A stretch of DNA of 64,000 bases from Armatimonadota bacterium (GTDB lineage Bacteria > Armatimonadota > HRBIN16), in the NCBI GenBank assembly GCA_963677485.1, contig OY781964.1:2528001-2592000 (forward strand), read 5' to 3'. Positions 713 to 50,039 of this stretch are shown one piece after another. A model generated the notes under the pieces. It saw only the letters and a program-made list of their open reading frames with translations. It did no database searches and had not been told where the DNA came from. The stretch's first letter is position 1. Each line of letters starts with the position of its first letter. Position numbers and translations under genes: made by a program.

Positions 713-2005
713 CTAGGATACTGGTGTCAGAACCCTCGGTTTGTTGCCCACCCGACTGCGCGATGGCCGGTTTCGGGATGCGGGCCGACCACCGCCGGCA
801 GGAGTGGGCTCATTGGTGGGATTTCCATCCACGCATCCCCGTCTTGGAACGCTCACGTCCAGCCCAGGATCATTGCCTACACCGGCTATATCATGGGCCG
901 CTCCGGCACGATCCTGGACATGTCCGTTCGCGTCGGTCAGCGGTTGCTGGTTGGCCGCATTTGAAGCTTGTTCGATGCCGAAGTTTGGATCATATGGCTG
1001 ACGGCTGATTAATACCGACCACATGAGCACCAGCTGCTTGCGCATGATTGCGCACCGGACAACTCGCTTGGACTTCGGTTTCTTATTGGGATTCTTTACC
1101 AAATTCGGATGCTGCAGTTCCTTCACGAAGTCGTGCATGCTCTGGCCAAGCTTTTTCGACTTACCGTTGACCATCTTCACCACAGTGCTCGATCCACAGT
1201 AGAGTAATGTCCGCATATATCGGTCACCCATCTTGGATATGGAGCCGTCGTATGTCTTGCAGCTTCCTGACCGTTGCGGGCAGGGGTTCATTCCGAAATA
1301 GCGCGCGACCGCTTTCGATGTTTCAAATCGTTTAGCATCACCGATTTTCGCAAGGAAATAGCTTGCTGTGACGTCGCTGATACCCGGAATGCTCTTCAGC
1401 AGAGCCATATCTTCGGTCATCTGCGGTGAACTCATCACAAGCTCTTTGATCTGAACATCAAGCTTTTTGATGCCCATGTCATGAAAAGCGATCATCTCGT
1501 CCAGCACTGTGCTCCGCGTAAGCCGACAGCTTTGGCGCTGGGCGATCGCCTGTCTGTGTTGCACCAGCATACGGCGGTCATTGGTGTAACCAATAAGCGC
1601 ATCATAGCATGCTAGACGAGGGACATAGAGTGAGACATTGTGACTTTTCACATAGTCAGCGATTAGCACGCTGTCAGAGCAGTCCGTCTTTTGTTCCCAG
1701 CCTTTGGCTTTGCGGTGATAGAGAACCCGTTTTGGCTCCAGTTGGACAGCATCGTGCTGGTGCTCGTAGAGGTAATCAAGCAGCGGTCGGCTGTAAGGCC
1801 CGGTGGCTTCAGCCGCATACAAGGCGGGAGTTCGGGTAAGCTTCTTCACCCATGACAACAACTCCTTGTATCCGGCCTTGTTGTTCTTGAACTCCTTATG
1901 GTCTATCGGCTTGTGCGATGAACCTAATACAGACGCGTCAAACGTCAATTTCGAGATGTCGATCCCGACATAATGGATGTAGATTTTGTCTTCAACTTCG
2001 TGCAT
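713..2005 (-). CDS. IS110-family DEDD recombinase/transposase
   Basis: YVGIDISK, AEATGPY, KTDCSDS (DEDD) and GMNPCPQRSGS (catalytic Ser); ATG at 2005 follows GGAG; low-complexity tail after QPYDPNF. Confidence 0.95.
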   Translation of the reverse strand: MHEVEDKIYIHYVGIDISKLTFDASVLGSSHKPIDHKEFKNNKAGYKELLSWVKKLTRTPALYAAEATGPYSRPLLDYLYEHQHDAVQLEPKRVLYHRKAKGWEQKTDCSDSVLIADYVKSHNVSLYVPRLACYDALIGYTNDRRMLVQHRQAIAQRQSCRLTRSTVLDEMIAFHDMGIKKLDVQIKELVMSSPQMTEDMALLKSIPGISDVTASYFLAKIGDAKRFETSKAVARYFGMNPCPQRSGSCKTYDGSISKMGDRYMRTLLYCGSSTVVKMVNGKSKKLGQSMHDFVKELQHPNLVKNPNKKPKSKRVVRCAIMRKQLVLMWSVLISRQPYDPNFGIEQASNAANQQPLTDANGHVQDRAGAAHDIAGVGNDPGLDVSVPRRGCVDGNPTNEPTPAGGGRPASRNRPSRSRVGNKPRVLTPVS

Positions 2006-44136: not shown

Positions 44137-45251
44137 CTACTTCTCCCACACGATCTTCACTGGATGCAGTTCGGTACACCAAAAAGCCCAGTTCAAGCCC
44201 GGATTCGCACTATACGCATATCCCAGATAGATGGGGCGTTTGGTGTCGATCTGCCCCTCCGGGTCGGCACTGATGCCGCAGTTCGATATCCATGTGCGCA
44301 GATTATGAGTTACATGGACGGGTTCACTCCAGGTGATCCCATCACGTGAGGTTCTCACAGCGATAAAGCTGTGATCAGTGAACCGGCTGGCGGTACTCAC
44401 GGCAATGAAGCATTTATATGCAGGAACGTACTTCACATCAGCACTATCTTCGGCATCTAGACGATCCCACGCGGCTCCAAAAAGCTTCAGCTTTGCGGGC
44501 CAGTTATCATCATCGGCAGGCGCGGTTGCCACCATGGTGCGGTCAATGCTCGCACTCTTGCCTCCTTGCCCTGGCCAGCTGCCAAGAGTGTAATAGATGA
44601 ACAGCCTCTTGCCCACGCGGACAAAGCTTGGTTCACCCGCACCCCACCACTTCACCGGGCTGTGAAATGAAACCAGCGGAACGGGGCTGGTGCCTCCCCA
44701 GCCTTTACCGTTCCATTTTGCGTATGGACCTGTGGGGCTGGTGCTGCGGGCCACGAACACTTCATTACGATTGCTCGGCATATTATCAACACCGGTCGTG
44801 CCCAGGTAGTAATATGATCCCAGCTTGATCACGCCAGGGTCGCAGGTGCTGTATTTTTCGCGTGAACTGGGGACGGGCCTGAGAACTACTGTCTCTGGGC
44901 CGGTCGGCTTGCCGTCGGCACTCAGCTTTTGGTGCCGGATCCAGTCCCACTGCCAGTACATTCCATCGACCACACCTTCGTATGGGTATGCCTCACCGAA
45001 CAGTTTTGCGCCGGCGAAATCAGTAGCCGCATTGTCATCTACCGAGCCGCCAGGGGCCGAAAAGAAGGCATCGATGCTGCCGTCTGGATTCATCAGCATG
45101 GTGGGACCATATCGGTATAGCCCTCCAAAAGTCACTTTTGAGGGGTCGAATATGGTCCAGCCCGGCCCCGCTTCTATGGTCAGACGACGGATGGGTGTAG
45201 GATGAGTGCTCTTGGCGACATCGCCCATGGCATGACCGCTTAGCGATAACC
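44137..45251 (-). pseudogene. Secreted five-bladed beta-propeller glycosidase (GH43/GH32 clan-like): 3' part of a gene interrupted by IS110
   Basis: YGP, TCDPGVIK, WGAGEPS and EDSADVK motifs; the 5' part lies at 47457-47520. Confidence 0.85.
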
Positions 45252-45350
45252 AGGCACCCGCCCGTAGGGGAACAACGACACAAAGACCGTCCCAAGGGGC
45301 GGGCACGTGAAGGATCACGTGCCTTTGCCCTGGGTTTACTGCACTTCATC

Positions 45351-45701
45351 TTAGAAGTTGCTTGGTTCTAAGGAGTTACGCGTTAGCGTATAGCGTGGTG
45401 TGCCGTTGAAAGTGCGCACACCAATAGTGACTGGCCAAAACACATCCCATCCAATAGAAGTGTATTCCTTCGGTGCCCACTCAGATACACAGTAAGTGGT
45501 GTCACCTGCAAGTATTTTGTAGTCCACCACTTCCCGTTGATCGTTGCCAACATATCTGCGATTGCGTCCAACAACTACCCCTGCAAGCATAAGGCCTTGA
45601 TGGACTGAACTCGTCGTGTCTAGGTTTTCCACGGATGTTTCACTACTAAACTCGTGGGTTGTCACGTGTGCAATCGTCTCGTTGGTTTTCGGGTCTATCA
45701 T
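45351..45701 (-). CDS. Small beta-rich passenger protein, putative OB-fold ssDNA-binding protein
   Basis: 116 aa; ATGA overlap with the recombinase stop; LAGVVVGRNRRY..EVVDYKIL..YCVSEW..IGWDVFWPVTIGVRTF strand pattern. Confidence 0.65.
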   Translation of the reverse strand: MIDPKTNETIAHVTTHEFSSETSVENLDTTSSVHQGLMLAGVVVGRNRRYVGNDQREVVDYKILAGDTTYCVSEWAPKEYTSIGWDVFWPVTIGVRTFNGTPRYTLTRNSLEPSNF

Positions 45702-47119
45702 TTCTTTACGTGGGGCTGAAGGATTACCTTCACGTGCATCAGGCATTTTTCGCCAACTCCTCTAATTTGTGATAGTGCTCCTGAATCGTAGGCTTTACCT
45801 AGTTCATCGGCAGTGCTGTAGTGTGATAGTAGCTTCGCGTAACGGCCATATTCATCCACAGTGAGAACTTTACCGTCATAGCGAGTAGGCTCGAAGTAAG
45901 TGTATAGTTCGTATTTGAACATCTCACCTCGGTTGCTGACGTGATACGATGCCTCGATCATACGTCGGGCTACCGCACCACATGCCTTTTTGAAACCTCC
46001 TTTCTTCTGTCGTTTCCACATATTGTATCCCCAGTTACCCAGCGCTTCCTTGGGTCTGGCAATGAGGATTTGTGCGGCATGAGTGAGTGCTGAGTGTAAC
46101 TTTTGATTCCCTCCACGCCTGGCCTGTGAGGTGACTTTACCTGCGCTGACCTTCAGGCTGGGGTCACAGCCGGCATATGCGGCTAGAGCCTTCGCATTTG
46201 GAAATCGCGTGGGGGTGATTACTTCCGTCATCCAGTAGAGGGTACTGAGTGGGCCGAAACCGGGGATGGAGAGCAGCAGCTCTTTCAATCGGGTTCCATT
46301 GACAATTTCACCCGTTCCCAGAGTAAACTCTGTTGTGTCAGCGGTTTTCTGGGCGATCTGTTCATACTTCTTGACTTTACTAATCGCATCGTCGTATTCT
46401 TTATACAGTTCATAGAAAACGGGTCTAACGGTTGGTGGGATGCCATCAGGGCACACACCGTTAGATCGAACAGGCCTATCCTCAAGCAAGTCTTGAATGA
46501 TGGCTCGGCCACGTGATGACACTACGGGGTCTTCTGCGCCTATGGTGTGCCCGTATCGCAGCAGAAAATTATTGATGCGGTTTGAGGCTCGAAGTGCCAT
46601 TCTTTTGGCGTCTTCGCGCATGTTTAGAAATATACGCAGCGTTTGTATGGGCATGGGTGCCAGGTATGATACCGGCCACATGCCAGTGATGGCATGGTAT
46701 GCCAACAGCCGAGAGTCCAGTACATCCGTTTTACGTCTGGACGGGCTAGCGAGTAACGGATTGACCACCGATGGGATACCACCAAATGCCCTGATGATGG
46801 GCAGGTGATATGTGCCGGTGCTCTCTATTGTGTATGCCAGACCGTGACTGTCAAGGGTATCTATGGCATCTTGATCGCCATATTTGAGTATGGTTTCTAT
46901 ACACCAATCTCGTGCTTGACAGAGTTGGTTCCATGAGGTAGTAAACTGCTGTTCGTGGCGTTTTACCCCATTTTCATTCCTGACATTGACACAAACTTGA
47001 ATGAAGCGCGAATGACAGTCAATACCCACACCAAATGCCTTAAGGCTATATGCTTCTACCGCATCCTCTTGTTGAGAGGGGTCGGTGAACGAATCTCCTA
47101 TTCGTGGTATATCCGACAT
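45698..47119 (-). CDS. IS110-family DEDD recombinase with a C-terminal HhH/alpha-CTD-like extension
   Basis: GIDCH, IESTG, RKTDVLDS and AGCDPSLKVSAGK; tail ALSQIRGVGEKCLMHVKVIL. Confidence 0.93.
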   Translation of the reverse strand: MSDIPRIGDSFTDPSQQEDAVEAYSLKAFGVGIDCHSRFIQVCVNVRNENGVKRHEQQFTTSWNQLCQARDWCIETILKYGDQDAIDTLDSHGLAYTIESTGTYHLPIIRAFGGIPSVVNPLLASPSRRKTDVLDSRLLAYHAITGMWPVSYLAPMPIQTLRIFLNMREDAKRMALRASNRINNFLLRYGHTIGAEDPVVSSRGRAIIQDLLEDRPVRSNGVCPDGIPPTVRPVFYELYKEYDDAISKVKKYEQIAQKTADTTEFTLGTGEIVNGTRLKELLLSIPGFGPLSTLYWMTEVITPTRFPNAKALAAYAGCDPSLKVSAGKVTSQARRGGNQKLHSALTHAAQILIARPKEALGNWGYNMWKRQKKGGFKKACGAVARRMIEASYHVSNRGEMFKYELYTYFEPTRYDGKVLTVDEYGRYAKLLSHYSTADELGKAYDSGALSQIRGVGEKCLMHVKVILQPHVKK

Positions 47120-47197
47120 GTTGTTATCGTCGCCCCCTTATGCGCAGCCTGGTTAACAGTAGTCACGCTACTATTGAATATACGGCGCTGTGTAATA

Positions 47198-47226
47198 ATT
47201 ATGGTGTATATATTTCTACGTGTCAA
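47198..47226 (-). promoter_or_regulatory. Near-consensus sigma70 promoter for the leader RNA and recombinase
   Basis: TTGACA-17 bp-CATAAT with an A/T-rich upstream tract. Confidence 0.8.
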
Positions 47227-47279
47227 GGCTTTTTTACTAAATTTCAAGATATTTTTTCAAAATTTTTCGAAATTGGGTT

Positions 47280-47309
47280 TTGACACACTTTTTAGTCGAT
47301 AGTGACAAT
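47280..47309 (+). promoter_or_regulatory. Putative divergent promoter facing the element end
   Basis: TTGACA-18 bp-GACAAT. Confidence 0.45.
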
Positions 47310-47456
47310 AATTCGGTCGTATGGACCAAAATCGGCTTAGGTTTCTTTGAGGTATATTGCTGTGCTGTTCGGCGAAATGAGGTGTTTTTGCGGGCGGATT
47401 TGCCTAAACGGGTACGTACATTAATGTATAGTACGTACACTGTATATAGTCTTTAT

Positions 47457-47520
47457 AGGAGAAGCTGCACACCAACGCAGTGATGAGAAACTGTATGAGT
47501 TTGCGAATACCTGTCGTCAT
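47457..47520 (-). pseudogene. 5' fragment (signal peptide) of the interrupted glycosidase
   Basis: ATG after GAAGGGA encodes MTTGIRKLIQFLITALVCSFS and joins in frame to WLSLSGHAMG at 45252. Confidence 0.85.
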
Positions 47521-47708
47521 TTTGAGCTGATCCCTTCTGAATGCGAGACGGGGCATACTATTGATTCTCAGTATACAGCCTTAGCAGCACCGCGTGTCCC
47601 TTGCATGAGCAGTTGGTTATGTGCAAGAATCGGGTGATGCGGAACTGATGCGACTATAAATACAGCAATATCCAGCATACCGGAACTGATGAAATAGAGG
47701 ACAACTTA

Positions 47709-48692
47709 ATGAGTGCAATGACTTCCCGCGAACGAGTGCAATGTGTTTTGAACGGCGGAAAGCCTGACCGCGTACCGTTCAACTTCTGGATGGACCGCGA
47801 CATCATGGCCCGACTTGATGCGAAGTGGGGGGCGGACTTCCGGCTGACCCACTACGGTGTGGATGTGATCGAAGCCTTCGCAACGCTTCCTTTCTGGTGG
47901 ACAGTACCGCCCAAAATGGTGCATGACGCCATCACCTCATGGCAGGTGGAGCCCATCATCGATGACATTCGCAAAGCGCTGGATCTGCCCTTACCCACAC
48001 AACAGCACATCGATGCGGTGACCCTGGACATCGAGGCGAAGCGTGCAGCCAACCCGGATAAGGCGATCTTTGCCCTCACATTAGCTCCGCTGGATATCAT
48101 CTTCCCTCTACGCCTGATGGAAGGCGCGATGATCGATATGATGGATTACCCCGATGAGTTACATGAGGTGCTCAGGCGGTACCGGAGCATCATGATCCCT
48201 GCCATGGAGAAGGTCTGCGCATCCGATATCGATGTGTTGTATCTGGCGGGTGATATTTGCAGCGTGAACGGGCCGATGATCTCACCGAAGCTTCTGCGTG
48301 AGTTCCATTTCGAGTATATGAAGGAACTGGTTGATATCGCCCATGCGGCCGGGAAGAAGGTTCTCTATCACACCGATGGCCGGCAGAACCATCTGTGGCC
48401 GATGTTCATGGAATACGGCTTTAACGGCGTGAACCCCGTGGAGGCGCGTTACCACGACTACAACGACTTCGTGGCCGATACGCGGGGAAAGCTCACGTTG
48501 TATGGCGGTCTAGATAACTGCAACGTCATCCCCAACGGCACCGTGGACGAAGTGCGTGCTCAGGTGCGCAGCGTATTCGACATCGTGGGTAAGAACGGCG
48601 GGCTGATCTTCAGCTCACACGACATCCCCTCCTGCGTTCCGATGGAGAACCTCGACGCCATGGTGGATGAGATCAAGAGCTGCACTTATTAG
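47709..48692 (+). CDS. Uroporphyrinogen decarboxylase / MtaA-like family protein
   Basis: MTSRERV...KPDRVP, GPMISP, YHTDG, GGLIFSSH. Confidence 0.88.
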   Translation: MSAMTSRERVQCVLNGGKPDRVPFNFWMDRDIMARLDAKWGADFRLTHYGVDVIEAFATLPFWWTVPPKMVHDAITSWQVEPIIDDIRKALDLPLPTQQHIDAVTLDIEAKRAANPDKAIFALTLAPLDIIFPLRLMEGAMIDMMDYPDELHEVLRRYRSIMIPAMEKVCASDIDVLYLAGDICSVNGPMISPKLLREFHFEYMKELVDIAHAAGKKVLYHTDGRQNHLWPMFMEYGFNGVNPVEARYHDYNDFVADTRGKLTLYGGLDNCNVIPNGTVDEVRAQVRSVFDIVGKNGGLIFSSHDIPSCVPMENLDAMVDEIKSCTY

Positions 48693-48764: not shown

Positions 48765-50039
48765 TCATGCATCGTCAAACAGCCGGAACGGCCGCTTGAA
48801 TCCGTCTTTTGTCTTTTCCAGTTTGTCGGCATCGACCAGACGCTTGATCCAGTCTTTCGCGTGGGCTTTTGGGATGCTCAGCCGTTCCGCAACGGCCACT
48901 TCGGTGATTAGCCCTGGCATCGCGAGTATCAACTCAGATACCAGCTTGAATAACTGTATGGCCGCACTATCATCTTCTGAAGTCACCGAAGTTGTAATAG
49001 TTGGTGCTTGCTGGTACGGCGTCGCAGGCTCCCGTAATACAGCCAAGTCACCTACCGGCAGCTCAGGTTGAACAACCTCAGGTTTCGCAGGATTTTTGAG
49101 TGCTTCTGTCAGCGCATCAGAGTCGTTGGGGTTGGGCCAATCCACCGCCCCCTTGGCCTTGAGCGCCTGAAGGGCCCCGCCAGCATCGCTGGCAGCCCTG
49201 ACATATACGGTGATGCCCGTCCCTTTTTTATTTTTGGTAAGCTGCTCCACCGCCCCAGCCCAGGTACCGCCCTTTTCCAGGTCGCAGTTTACCACCAGCG
49301 CGGCGTCTGCTAGTGCATATACCAATTTGTTGCGTTGCATGGCATTGCCAGCATTAAATCCGGCCTTTGGGTCATATGGTGACATGAGCAGCAGTTGCCC
49401 ATCCATGATCGCCTGCCGGTGGCTGGTGTTCAACACAGACCGCTCCATACTGTCCGCGAGCACCCCGACCACCATTCCACCCCGCTCCAACCCGCCGCGC
49501 ATCGCCGACTGGTCAACCCCCCTGGCACCGCCAGAGACCACAGTACACCCCGAACGGGCGGCCAGGCGGCCGATCTCTTCAGTCCATTCCAATATCTCAT
49601 CATCGACGTGGCGTGAGCCCACAATCGCCAGTCCGCCGGTTTCACACAACGCGATGTCTCCGCAGCCGTATATGACCGGCGGAGCATTATGGTTCAACCT
49701 GTTGATGTAACGGCTTGGATAACCCTCATCGCCTTCAGAGACCACCCGGATGTTCAGTGCCCCCCAGCGTTCCAGAACCTGGGTCAGAAGGAAACCGCGT
49801 CCTAGTAACTGGTGAACTCGGCTTACATCGATGTCTTGCTGACATCCCAGCTCCACCAGATCATACACGCCGGGCTCGAGAAGTGCTTGCAGTTGGTATC
49901 CCCGTTCGGTCAGACGGCCGCCGAATCGGCGATATTCGCCCGGTGACAGCAGTTTTGCCTCGGGATCGGTGCGGCTAAGTATCAGTGGAGCGGTTAACAG
50001 CAGGGCTGCCTTGGTGTTTTGTGTCGGTGACATCATCAA
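48765..50039 (-). CDS. DprA-domain protein (RqlI-like)
   Basis: [30 protein letters not shown]; wHTH-like C-terminus. Confidence 0.9.

Follow-up and report, generated by a model that had tools for sequence, protein, structure and literature searches.

The bridge recombinases of the IS110 family, which are being developed as programmable genome-writing tools, are thought to need one protein and one RNA, and the question raised by the locus described here is what a second, accessory protein does for the efficiency, directionality and fidelity of bridge recombination. The locus lies on the minus strand of a 64,000-nucleotide stretch of DNA from an Armatimonadota bacterium (contig OY781964.1 of assembly GCA_963677485.1, positions 2,528,001 to 2,592,000; hereafter the window, whose numbering is used throughout), where a compact natural system of 2.2 kb, the insertion element at 45252..47459, encodes a recombinase and, overlapping it, a small protein with a predicted OB fold. 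An earlier note on this DNA, made from the sequence alone, had called the element a distinct IS110 subtype with a dedicated accessory protein, a view that is largely supported by the comparisons below. It is probable, in our estimate, that the element is an intact member of a widespread and apparently undescribed RNA-guided branch of IS110, with a recombination module of three conserved parts rather than two.

A tailed recombinase and the gene beside it

The larger gene (45698..47119, minus strand) encodes a recombinase of 473 aa that matches the NCBIfam IS110 model NF033542 over residues 31-399 with 152.8 bits (cut-off 140) and PF02371 with 61.3 bits (cut-off 21.3), while its match to PF01548, at 26.5 bits, falls slightly below the 29-bit cut-off of that model. 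It has the N-terminal RuvC-like DEDD domain and the C-terminal Tnp domain with catalytic serine that are expected of an IS110 member, and in an alignment of 40 relatives E99, D132, D135 and S325 (the last within LKVSAGK) are invariant and D34 is nearly so, in keeping with the earlier reading of an intact DEDD set and a serine in KVSAG. These five residues mirror the catalytic set D11/E60/D102/D105/S241 given for IS621 (PMC11208158).

About 74 residues of the recombinase extend past the family model. This C-terminal extension had been noticed before as helix-hairpin-helix (HhH), and its assignment can now be refined. When a profile of the tail, built from 34 relatives, was compared with PDB sequences, it matched the C-terminal domain (CTD) of the RNA polymerase alpha subunit (1doq_A, E 4.2e-9, positions 13-69 of 78), which is a double helix-hairpin-helix domain. 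PF03118 matches 12 of the 34 tails (best 1.5e-6), others match HHH_5 or HHH_2, and the structure model of the tail is a three-helix bundle with a pLDDT of 80.8. As judged from its sequence profile, then, the tail (residues 403-473, 45701..45913, minus strand, with an invariant G-x-G at G454 and G456) is an alpha-CTD-like (HhH)2 domain.

The second gene (45351..45746, minus strand) had been described as a beta-rich open reading frame (ORF) of 116 aa joined to the recombinase gene by an ATGA overlap. The overlap is present (45698-45701) and five beta strands are predicted, but the start is placed elsewhere: the gene probably begins at the ATG at 45746, 45 nt upstream of the ATGA start at 45701, and so encodes 131 aa, because that ATG has a much better ribosome-binding site (AGAGGAG with a 10-nt spacer) and is the one used by gene callers, the protein-database entry also beginning there. 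The predicted protein has a disordered N-terminus, a barrel at residues 36-110 (in the 116-aa numbering) and a C-terminus ending in EPSNF. A HMMER search of 1.84 billion representatives yielded 43 relatives at E<=1e-3, nearly all of 85-130 aa, whose alignment (24-58% identity) has a variable N-terminus followed by a conserved core, G-L-x-L-x-G-x-V-x-G-R-x-R-R...V-T-Y...W-x-P..., with G36, G41, R46 and Y61 invariant. At least 90% of 38 family members end in phenylalanine, usually as G-E-x-F.

AlphaFold, supplied with the family alignment, returned a five-stranded beta barrel with a pLDDT of 94-98. SSB heads the Foldseek list for this model (E 0.008), and VIA-align gave Z 9.1 for SSB (rmsd 2.0 over 74 residues), 8.6 for PriB and 7.8 for RuvA domain I, values little above those of unrelated models, so that these comparisons support placing the model among SSB/PriB-like OB folds and do not speak for homology. 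The earlier label "SSB-like" thus stands for the fold and falls for sequence-family membership: Pfam, NCBIfam and PHROGs hold no match to the protein at E<=1, none of 38 family members matches an SSB model, and the family profile finds nothing among PDB sequences at E<=10. The nearest 30 ESM Atlas clusters all bear the name "hypothetical protein" and lack a Pfam family, and ssDNA-binding clusters appear only at 0.82-0.84, as leads at most.

Likeness to SSB and PriB is one of architecture. The predicted five-stranded barrel superposes on these proteins with an rmsd of 2.0-3.1 over 74-75 residues, and members of the family have a disordered extension and a C-terminal phenylalanine, mostly after acidic residues, that are reminiscent of them. 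E. coli SSB has an acidic C-terminal tip that ends in phenylalanine. The family differs from SSB in that its disorder is N-terminal rather than a long C-terminal linker, and the tip of the window protein holds a single acidic residue; it differs from both in sequence, no similarity having come to light in Pfam, NCBIfam and PHROGs or when its profile was run against PDB. A prediction of the recombinase and the OB protein as a complex scored 0.15 and 0.01, short of the mark of 0.32, and is evidence neither for nor against their contact.

The case for a functional pair comes from co-conservation. Relatives were gathered by recombinase peptide patterns alone (47 loci in species-representative genomes, 56 in JGI metagenomes), without use of the small gene, and were then scanned in six frames with HMMs made from the recombinase and OB alignments; seven duplicate loci, recombinase fragments (HMM match short of position 455 of 470) and three loci with <330 nt downstream were left out. 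At 56 of the 57 non-redundant tail-bearing loci the OB gene follows directly on the same strand, in many cases overlapping the recombinase gene, and the sole exception (L097) has an internally deleted recombinase gene. All of the best 120 recombinase relatives reach the tail, and in none of these 120 is an OB domain fused to the recombinase. The check that the earlier note had proposed, that small gene and tail should be conserved together among homologues, therefore came out in its favour.

By their record titles, the loci belong to Latescibacterota, many Bacillota (Lachnospiraceae, Oribacterium, Ruminococcaceae, Erysipelotrichaceae), Phycisphaerae, Verrucomicrobiota, Armatimonadetes, Sumerlaeota and Kapaibacterium, and so to at least six phylum-level groups. 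The window genome itself has 31 matches to the IS110 model, from several other IS110 families, and neither tail nor OB gene was found in eleven other IS110-family loci examined from it. The OB profile matches 3 of 401 same-phylum genomes, the window's own included; of the other two, one has the match beside a tailed recombinase and one has a weak match (L006) in a short locus without a recombinase. Since the two features co-occur so regularly and are both absent from the eleven other IS110 loci, and since the OB profile matches so few genomes of the phylum, tail and OB gene are, on comparative sequence grounds, a joint and clade-defining feature. What emerges is a broad natural clade, with more than 569 recombinase homologues, in which an HhH tail and an SSB-like, apparently co-translated protein of a family without annotation are fixed.

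Whether this architecture had already been catalogued as an IS110 group was asked of the literature. Full-text searches, which did not cover ISfinder or supplements, found no description linking IS110 with an OB-fold or SSB-like accessory gene or with an HhH tail, and the terms for such a gene or tail are absent from a preprint on Nop5/IS110 evolution. Supplementary tables, those of PMC11208160 and of a 2026 preprint on cargo, may list members of the clade. The single effector of IS110 bridge systems is described as having about 300-460 aa (Durrant et al. 2024, PMC11208160). The element differs from the IS621 type in its 473-aa recombinase with an added alpha-CTD-like (HhH)2 domain and in its conserved second protein, while both have DEDD RuvC-like and Ser Tnp domains. 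IS900, also of the IS110 family, reportedly carries a second ORF, hed, on the complementary strand, which is not a downstream OB-fold gene.

Several observations on gene content stand beside these results. In one Bacillota metagenome contig (L029, 2-1876, plus strand) recombinase and OB domain lie in one open frame of 625 aa, which may be a natural fusion or a frameshift or sequencing error. The window holds a second IS110-family copy at 998-1972 (minus strand; contig positions 2528998-2529972), one of a family of about a dozen genome copies with 442-aa frames; five copies of that family (L117-L121, the window copy not among them) have neither HhH tail nor OB gene. In the rumen/Bacillota subgroup a divergent gene of ~120-130 aa encoding a Cro/C1-type helix-turn-helix (HTH) protein lies just upstream of promoter and RNA loop at 10 of 10 inspected loci (L028 2732-3109, L019 262-639 and L009 2546-2926, all on the minus strand, and seven further rumen-type loci), inside or beside the element. 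GC-rich, Planctomycetota-like relatives have a third gene after the OB gene, encoding a 73-129-aa HTH_17 (excisionase-type) protein with Pfam support in 2 of 4 tested (L027 3021-3341 and L070 1909-2130, both on the plus strand, L068 and L074); it is placed inside the element because the guide-predicted right junction falls 340-450 nt after the OB gene.

A guide loop in the recombinase leader

Transcription of the two genes would start from a resident sigma-70-like promoter, TTGACA-17-CATAAT (47226-47198, minus strand), which agrees with the consensus at 11 of 12 positions and had been pointed out in the earlier note together with the lack of an obvious promoter at the joined ends; that second point also holds, the joined ends giving a weak TTGTTC-17-TATAAA (3/6 and 5/6 matches) and nothing better. 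An A/T-rich tract with A-runs (47227-47290, minus strand) lies directly upstream of the -35 box, in a left end of 38% G+C, and looks like an UP element. UP elements are the natural DNA ligand of alpha-CTD domains, and it might be speculated that the alpha-CTD-like tail of the recombinase binds there.

Downstream of the promoter runs a leader of 56 nt (47190-47135, minus strand) that is homologous across subgroups. RNAalifold predicts in it two single-stranded segments bordered by a closing stem of 4 bp and a hairpin, so that the whole resembles the target-binding loop of a bridge RNA, with closing stem, 5' loop, 5-bp hairpin (47172-47158) and a 3' loop that contains the guide. Over the seven consensus pairs in 20 sequences, 98.6% of cells are paired; column shuffles give 74.6%, none of 500 attaining the observed value, and slid controls 25-50%. 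Five of the seven pairs have compensatory changes on both sides. A covariance model (R1) scores 46.2 bits at the window loop (E 7.6e-7) and has exactly one match per locus in 37 of 67 sources, which in every case precedes the recombinase gene on the same strand; 17 of these 37 loci had not been used in building the model. R1 has no match in five outgroup IS110 loci, and an Rfam scan of 44800-47900 at E<=1 returned no match.

The 3' single-stranded segment has an invariant AG after a variable stretch. In the window the guide UAACCAGGC is the exact complement of GCCTGGTTA (45255-45247), that is, of the last base of the right end, CCT and the first five host bases; the right-target guide, UAACCAGG with one handshake-like C, occupies 47147..47155 on the minus strand. 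Across the relatives, the 13 nt before the closing stem complement the right junction of their own locus at 17 of 22 loci over 6-12 nt (9 nt in the window), several of these matches being shortened by contig ends, while 399 cross-locus comparisons of guide and junction gave mostly 4-6 nt. The variable guide bases follow each flank (ACA/TGT, GCG/CGC, CGAGT/ACTCG, GACAAGC/GCTTGTC and others). An unbiased scan, in which upstream and downstream sequence were compared for their longest inverted match, returned this guide pair in the window and its homologues in L054, L009, L015, L018, L019, L022, L028, L031 and L039, and in L012 the junction predicted by the guide coincides with the right boundary set independently by comparison of two copies. 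A control on independent loci did not discriminate, since many of them share the guide ..ACCAGGCG.

Because the guide tracks each element's own right flank, the leader loop behaves, on this sequence comparison, as the right-target guide of a bridge RNA, and the element thereby has the target-binding loop that is typical of the IS110 family. We had considered that the match of TAACCAGG might be chance together with a conserved leader motif, an explanation overturned by the inverted-match scan and the guide-junction comparison. The loop also bears on the earlier note, which had described no RNA for this element: with a target loop in the recombinase leader, the accessory protein stands beside an RNA.

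The layout has both likenesses to and differences from what is known. As in the IS621 type, a guide RNA loop is encoded in a long left end upstream of the recombinase; the arrangement of the guides is reversed, the right-target guide here being long (8-11 nt) and the left-target match short. In the window's subgroup, unlike the IS621 type, the target loop abuts the ribosome-binding site with no donor loop found after it. IS1111-type elements are described as carrying their RNA after the recombinase gene (PMC11208160), and the present element differs from them in that the guide loop is in the left end, the right end comprises 96 nt and the core, and an extra gene occupies the place of the IS1111 RNA. 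A target loop placed in the leader and having a long right-target guide thus widens the known range of bridge-RNA layouts.

The guides also say something about target choice. Many diverged relatives share the guide ..ACCAGG with a 5' strand ..ACUCCU, and the window target TTCTCCTGGTTA agrees more closely with the consensus target CTCCTGGTT than with the 5' strand of its own loop, which suggests, as far as base complementarity can, a common preferred site with insertion driven mainly by the right half.

Two further observations concern the leader. L012, L070, L072, L074, L076, L080 and L059 and the window (47147-47155) have a near-identical right-target guide (..ACCAGGCG) at a recombinase identity of only ~40-45%, and the common preferred target would therefore be CCTGGT. 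In the window's subgroup (window 47120-47134, L054, L007, L055, L057 and L060) a conserved GACGAT(A/T)nnnnC separates the purine-rich ribosome-binding site from the start codon of the recombinase.

Ends, core and insertion site

The element, including both copies of its core, extends over 45252..47459 (minus strand), or 2,205 bp plus one 3-bp core copy. The exact ends with a repeated CCT that had been reported are there: on the forward strand AGG, which reads CCT on the element strand, stands at 45252-45254 (the right-end copy) and is repeated at 47457-47459 (the left-end copy). The core itself is probably CT, the likely crossover dinucleotide, with the preceding C repeated too, since the invariant AG of the guide loop in 20 relatives pairs with CT. 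A CT-containing core at both ends, together with the lack of terminal inverted repeats, is shared with IS621-type elements, and this short core, the missing terminal repeats and the precise insertion are as expected for IS110.

That a host gene was cleanly split, as had been claimed, can be seen by removing the element in silico: excision of 45252-47456 fuses a 5' part with a signal-peptide-like N-terminus (47460..47556, minus strand) to a GH43-like 3' part (44137..45251, minus strand; PF04616 with E 5.6e-6, below cut-off) in one frame of 404 aa (...LITALVCSFS|WLSLSGHAMGDV...), of which residues 6-404 align at 57% identity with an uninterrupted orthologue of the same genus. Orthologues of the host gene are present in 3 of 4 searched relatives. 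The element has 48% G+C against 55.7% in its flanks and occurs once in the 5.2-Mb genome. The element probably inserted once into the GH43-like gene, at TTCTC-CT-GGTTA.

The non-coding right end (45255..45350, minus strand) combines a hairpin, an inverted repeat and a conserved motif. Its GC-rich hairpin is GGCACGUGA-UCCU-UCACGUGCC, and at 45287-45280 GTCTTTGT repeats, inverted, the bases with which the left end starts (ATAAAGAC, 47449..47456, minus strand); it is followed by a conserved TGTCGTTG motif, a short hairpin, 6-7 nt and the core. The first 7-8 bases of the left end thus recur inverted about 30 nt inside the right end, a sub-terminal inverted repeat like that of IS1111, and a reading by eye finds that the pair covaries in L007 and L055 (TGAGAGC/GCTCTCA) and in L054 (AAAAGAC/GTCTTTT). 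When 11-mers of the joined-end halves were searched with up to 2 mismatches, their frequency across the window was that expected by chance, and the only occurrences within the element were its ends.

Metagenomes offer a limited view of mobility. Contig pieces 88-100% identical to the element span 45283-47462 only and never cover the host flanks. In a biogas-fermenter metagenome (X8, record 18) the same guide is found in a contig that departs at 47462 into another left flank, ending TCT before the CCT core, and in a near-identical wastewater variant (X6, with a loose end at 47136) a different guide occupies the same position, each of these being the observation of one low-depth contig whose uncovered parts are uninformative. 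A tblastn search of PLSDB plasmids with the recombinase at E<=1e-30 gave no match.

Some boundaries of relatives were considered and set aside. A longer right end for L054, suggested by a TTGTCGTTG-like motif past the junction, was disfavoured by the guide match, which supports the shorter end. The start of the stretch shared by L012 and L027, at a poly-G run ~45 nt before the conserved GVGID codons, is not a true left end and was taken for a truncation or assembly artefact, because the RNA loop of L012 lies further upstream. Host DNA of L054 just past its guide-predicted right junction, in the flank ~120-140 nt after the OB stop, repeats the TTGTCGTTGGAG motif of the element's own right end, and this locus may represent insertion beside the remnant of a related element.

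Proposed roles of the OB-fold protein

Taken together, these features may be arranged in a working scheme. The resident promoter would give a leader with its target loop and then the two overlapping genes for recombinase and OB protein, and the recombinase, acting as a tetramer by analogy to IS621, would cut at the CT core and exchange strands by way of a Holliday junction, within the frame of guides, handshake guides and Holliday junction described for IS110 (PMC11208160, PMC11208158). The (HhH)2 tail, from its fold and conservation, would add a contact to duplex DNA. The OB protein would be a dedicated nucleic-acid-binding helper that holds the strands displaced by the guides or binds the four-way junction, and the conserved ...E-x-F at its C-terminus may be a docking peptide of the kind found in SSB. 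The guess at junction handling arises because an OB fold, an (HhH)2 domain and a RuvC-like nuclease make up the parts list of RuvA and RuvC: an OB domain (RuvA domain I at Z 7.8), a double HhH domain and a RuvC-like DEDD nuclease acting at a four-way junction. The two systems differ in that the parts here are divided between two polypeptides in another order and in that the HhH domain is nearest to the RNA polymerase alpha CTD and not to RuvA domain II, so we would speculate about a functional analogy rather than homology.

A number of points weigh against the view of an intact, RNA-guided element with a third conserved part. The donor-binding loop was not found, and R1 shows no second loop. 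Compared by eye with the left flank, the 5' strand of this target loop agrees with it over only ~3 nt in the window copy and over 4-5 nt in L054 and in L055, and at the positions opposite the core the window's 5' strand reads AA instead of CU; this weak left match would mean either that recognition differs from IS621 or that the window copy is impaired. The element is single-copy, and neither a circle junction nor an empty site was seen in the material available, which consisted of assembled metagenome contigs with no joints listed. The window's own tail, taken alone, matches no Pfam family significantly, presumably because it is too diverged, and a Foldseek search with the 71-aa tail model gave nothing below E 2, the better-superposed of its non-significant rows including the HhH chains of PolX, the RAD51 N-terminus and the alpha CTD. 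For the OB model the Foldseek E-values are 0.008-0.04, and a Z of 7-9 is, by the tool's own note, also a typical best score for models without a true relative, so that the match is to a generic OB class. The role proposed for this protein is read from the modelled fold and from conservation.

In its strongest form, the proposal is of a two-protein, one-RNA system in which an obligatory OB partner captures the displaced strands or, as an analogue of RuvA, clamps the Holliday junction together with the tail, its phenylalanine tip docking the recombinase or host repair proteins. We put this forward tentatively, as a possibility that deserves attention though the balance of our judgement does not yet favour it. 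If it is true, the picture of IS110 as a "single effector" family fails for a large natural clade, and the OB helper might be transferred to engineered bridge recombinases as a means of improving them.

An alternative that we regard as unlikely, but as the best of the competing accounts, is that the OB protein regulates transposition by binding the leader or bridge RNA, or the A/T-rich promoter, and so throttles recombinase expression as small inhibitors or repressors do in other insertion sequences. OB folds bind RNA as well as DNA, the overlap of the genes means that both proteins are made together, and sister sub-branches do carry DNA-binding regulators (the Cro/C1-type HTH genes of 10/10 rumen-type loci and the HTH_17 genes of GC-rich loci). 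Yet the OB gene is constant and those HTH genes are not, which argues for a core component over an optional regulator; conservation at 56/57 loci across phyla and a DNA-binding tail borne by the recombinase itself fit a core component better, and the proteins that come nearest in structure bind ssDNA in replication and repair rather than acting as RNA-binding repressors.

Considerably less probable is that the small ORF has nothing to do with transposition and is carried as cargo or as a selfish passenger, such as an anti-defence protein or an SSB mimic of benefit to the element's host or carrier. A 2026 preprint reports that many IS110 loci >2 kb carry cargo and treats the extra genes as variable adaptive cargo (10.64898/2026.08.14.744561); the ...E-x-F tip, moreover, recalls the SSB tail that docks host repair proteins. 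Whereas cargo varies among relatives, the OB gene keeps its place, orientation and overlap down to ~35-40% recombinase identity, and among the 401 same-phylum genomes it is found only beside this recombinase branch, save for the weak L006 match. That the small ORF is an incidental, untranslated frame in a region that supplies the donor-binding section of the bridge RNA is scarcely credible, for although a donor loop was not located elsewhere in the element and the RNA of IS1111-type relatives is described as following the recombinase gene (PMC11208160), the family is conserved as protein over freely varying DNA (24-58% identity, invariant G/G/R/Y, 43 clusters) and has a confident barrel model, a frame that is open in 56 loci and a good ribosome-binding site, with which an RNA embedded in the coding sequence remains compatible.

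Adjoining the locus, an ORF of 424 aa at 48765-50039 (minus strand) has, from its translation, what we take to be DprA/Smf-like DNA-processing motifs.

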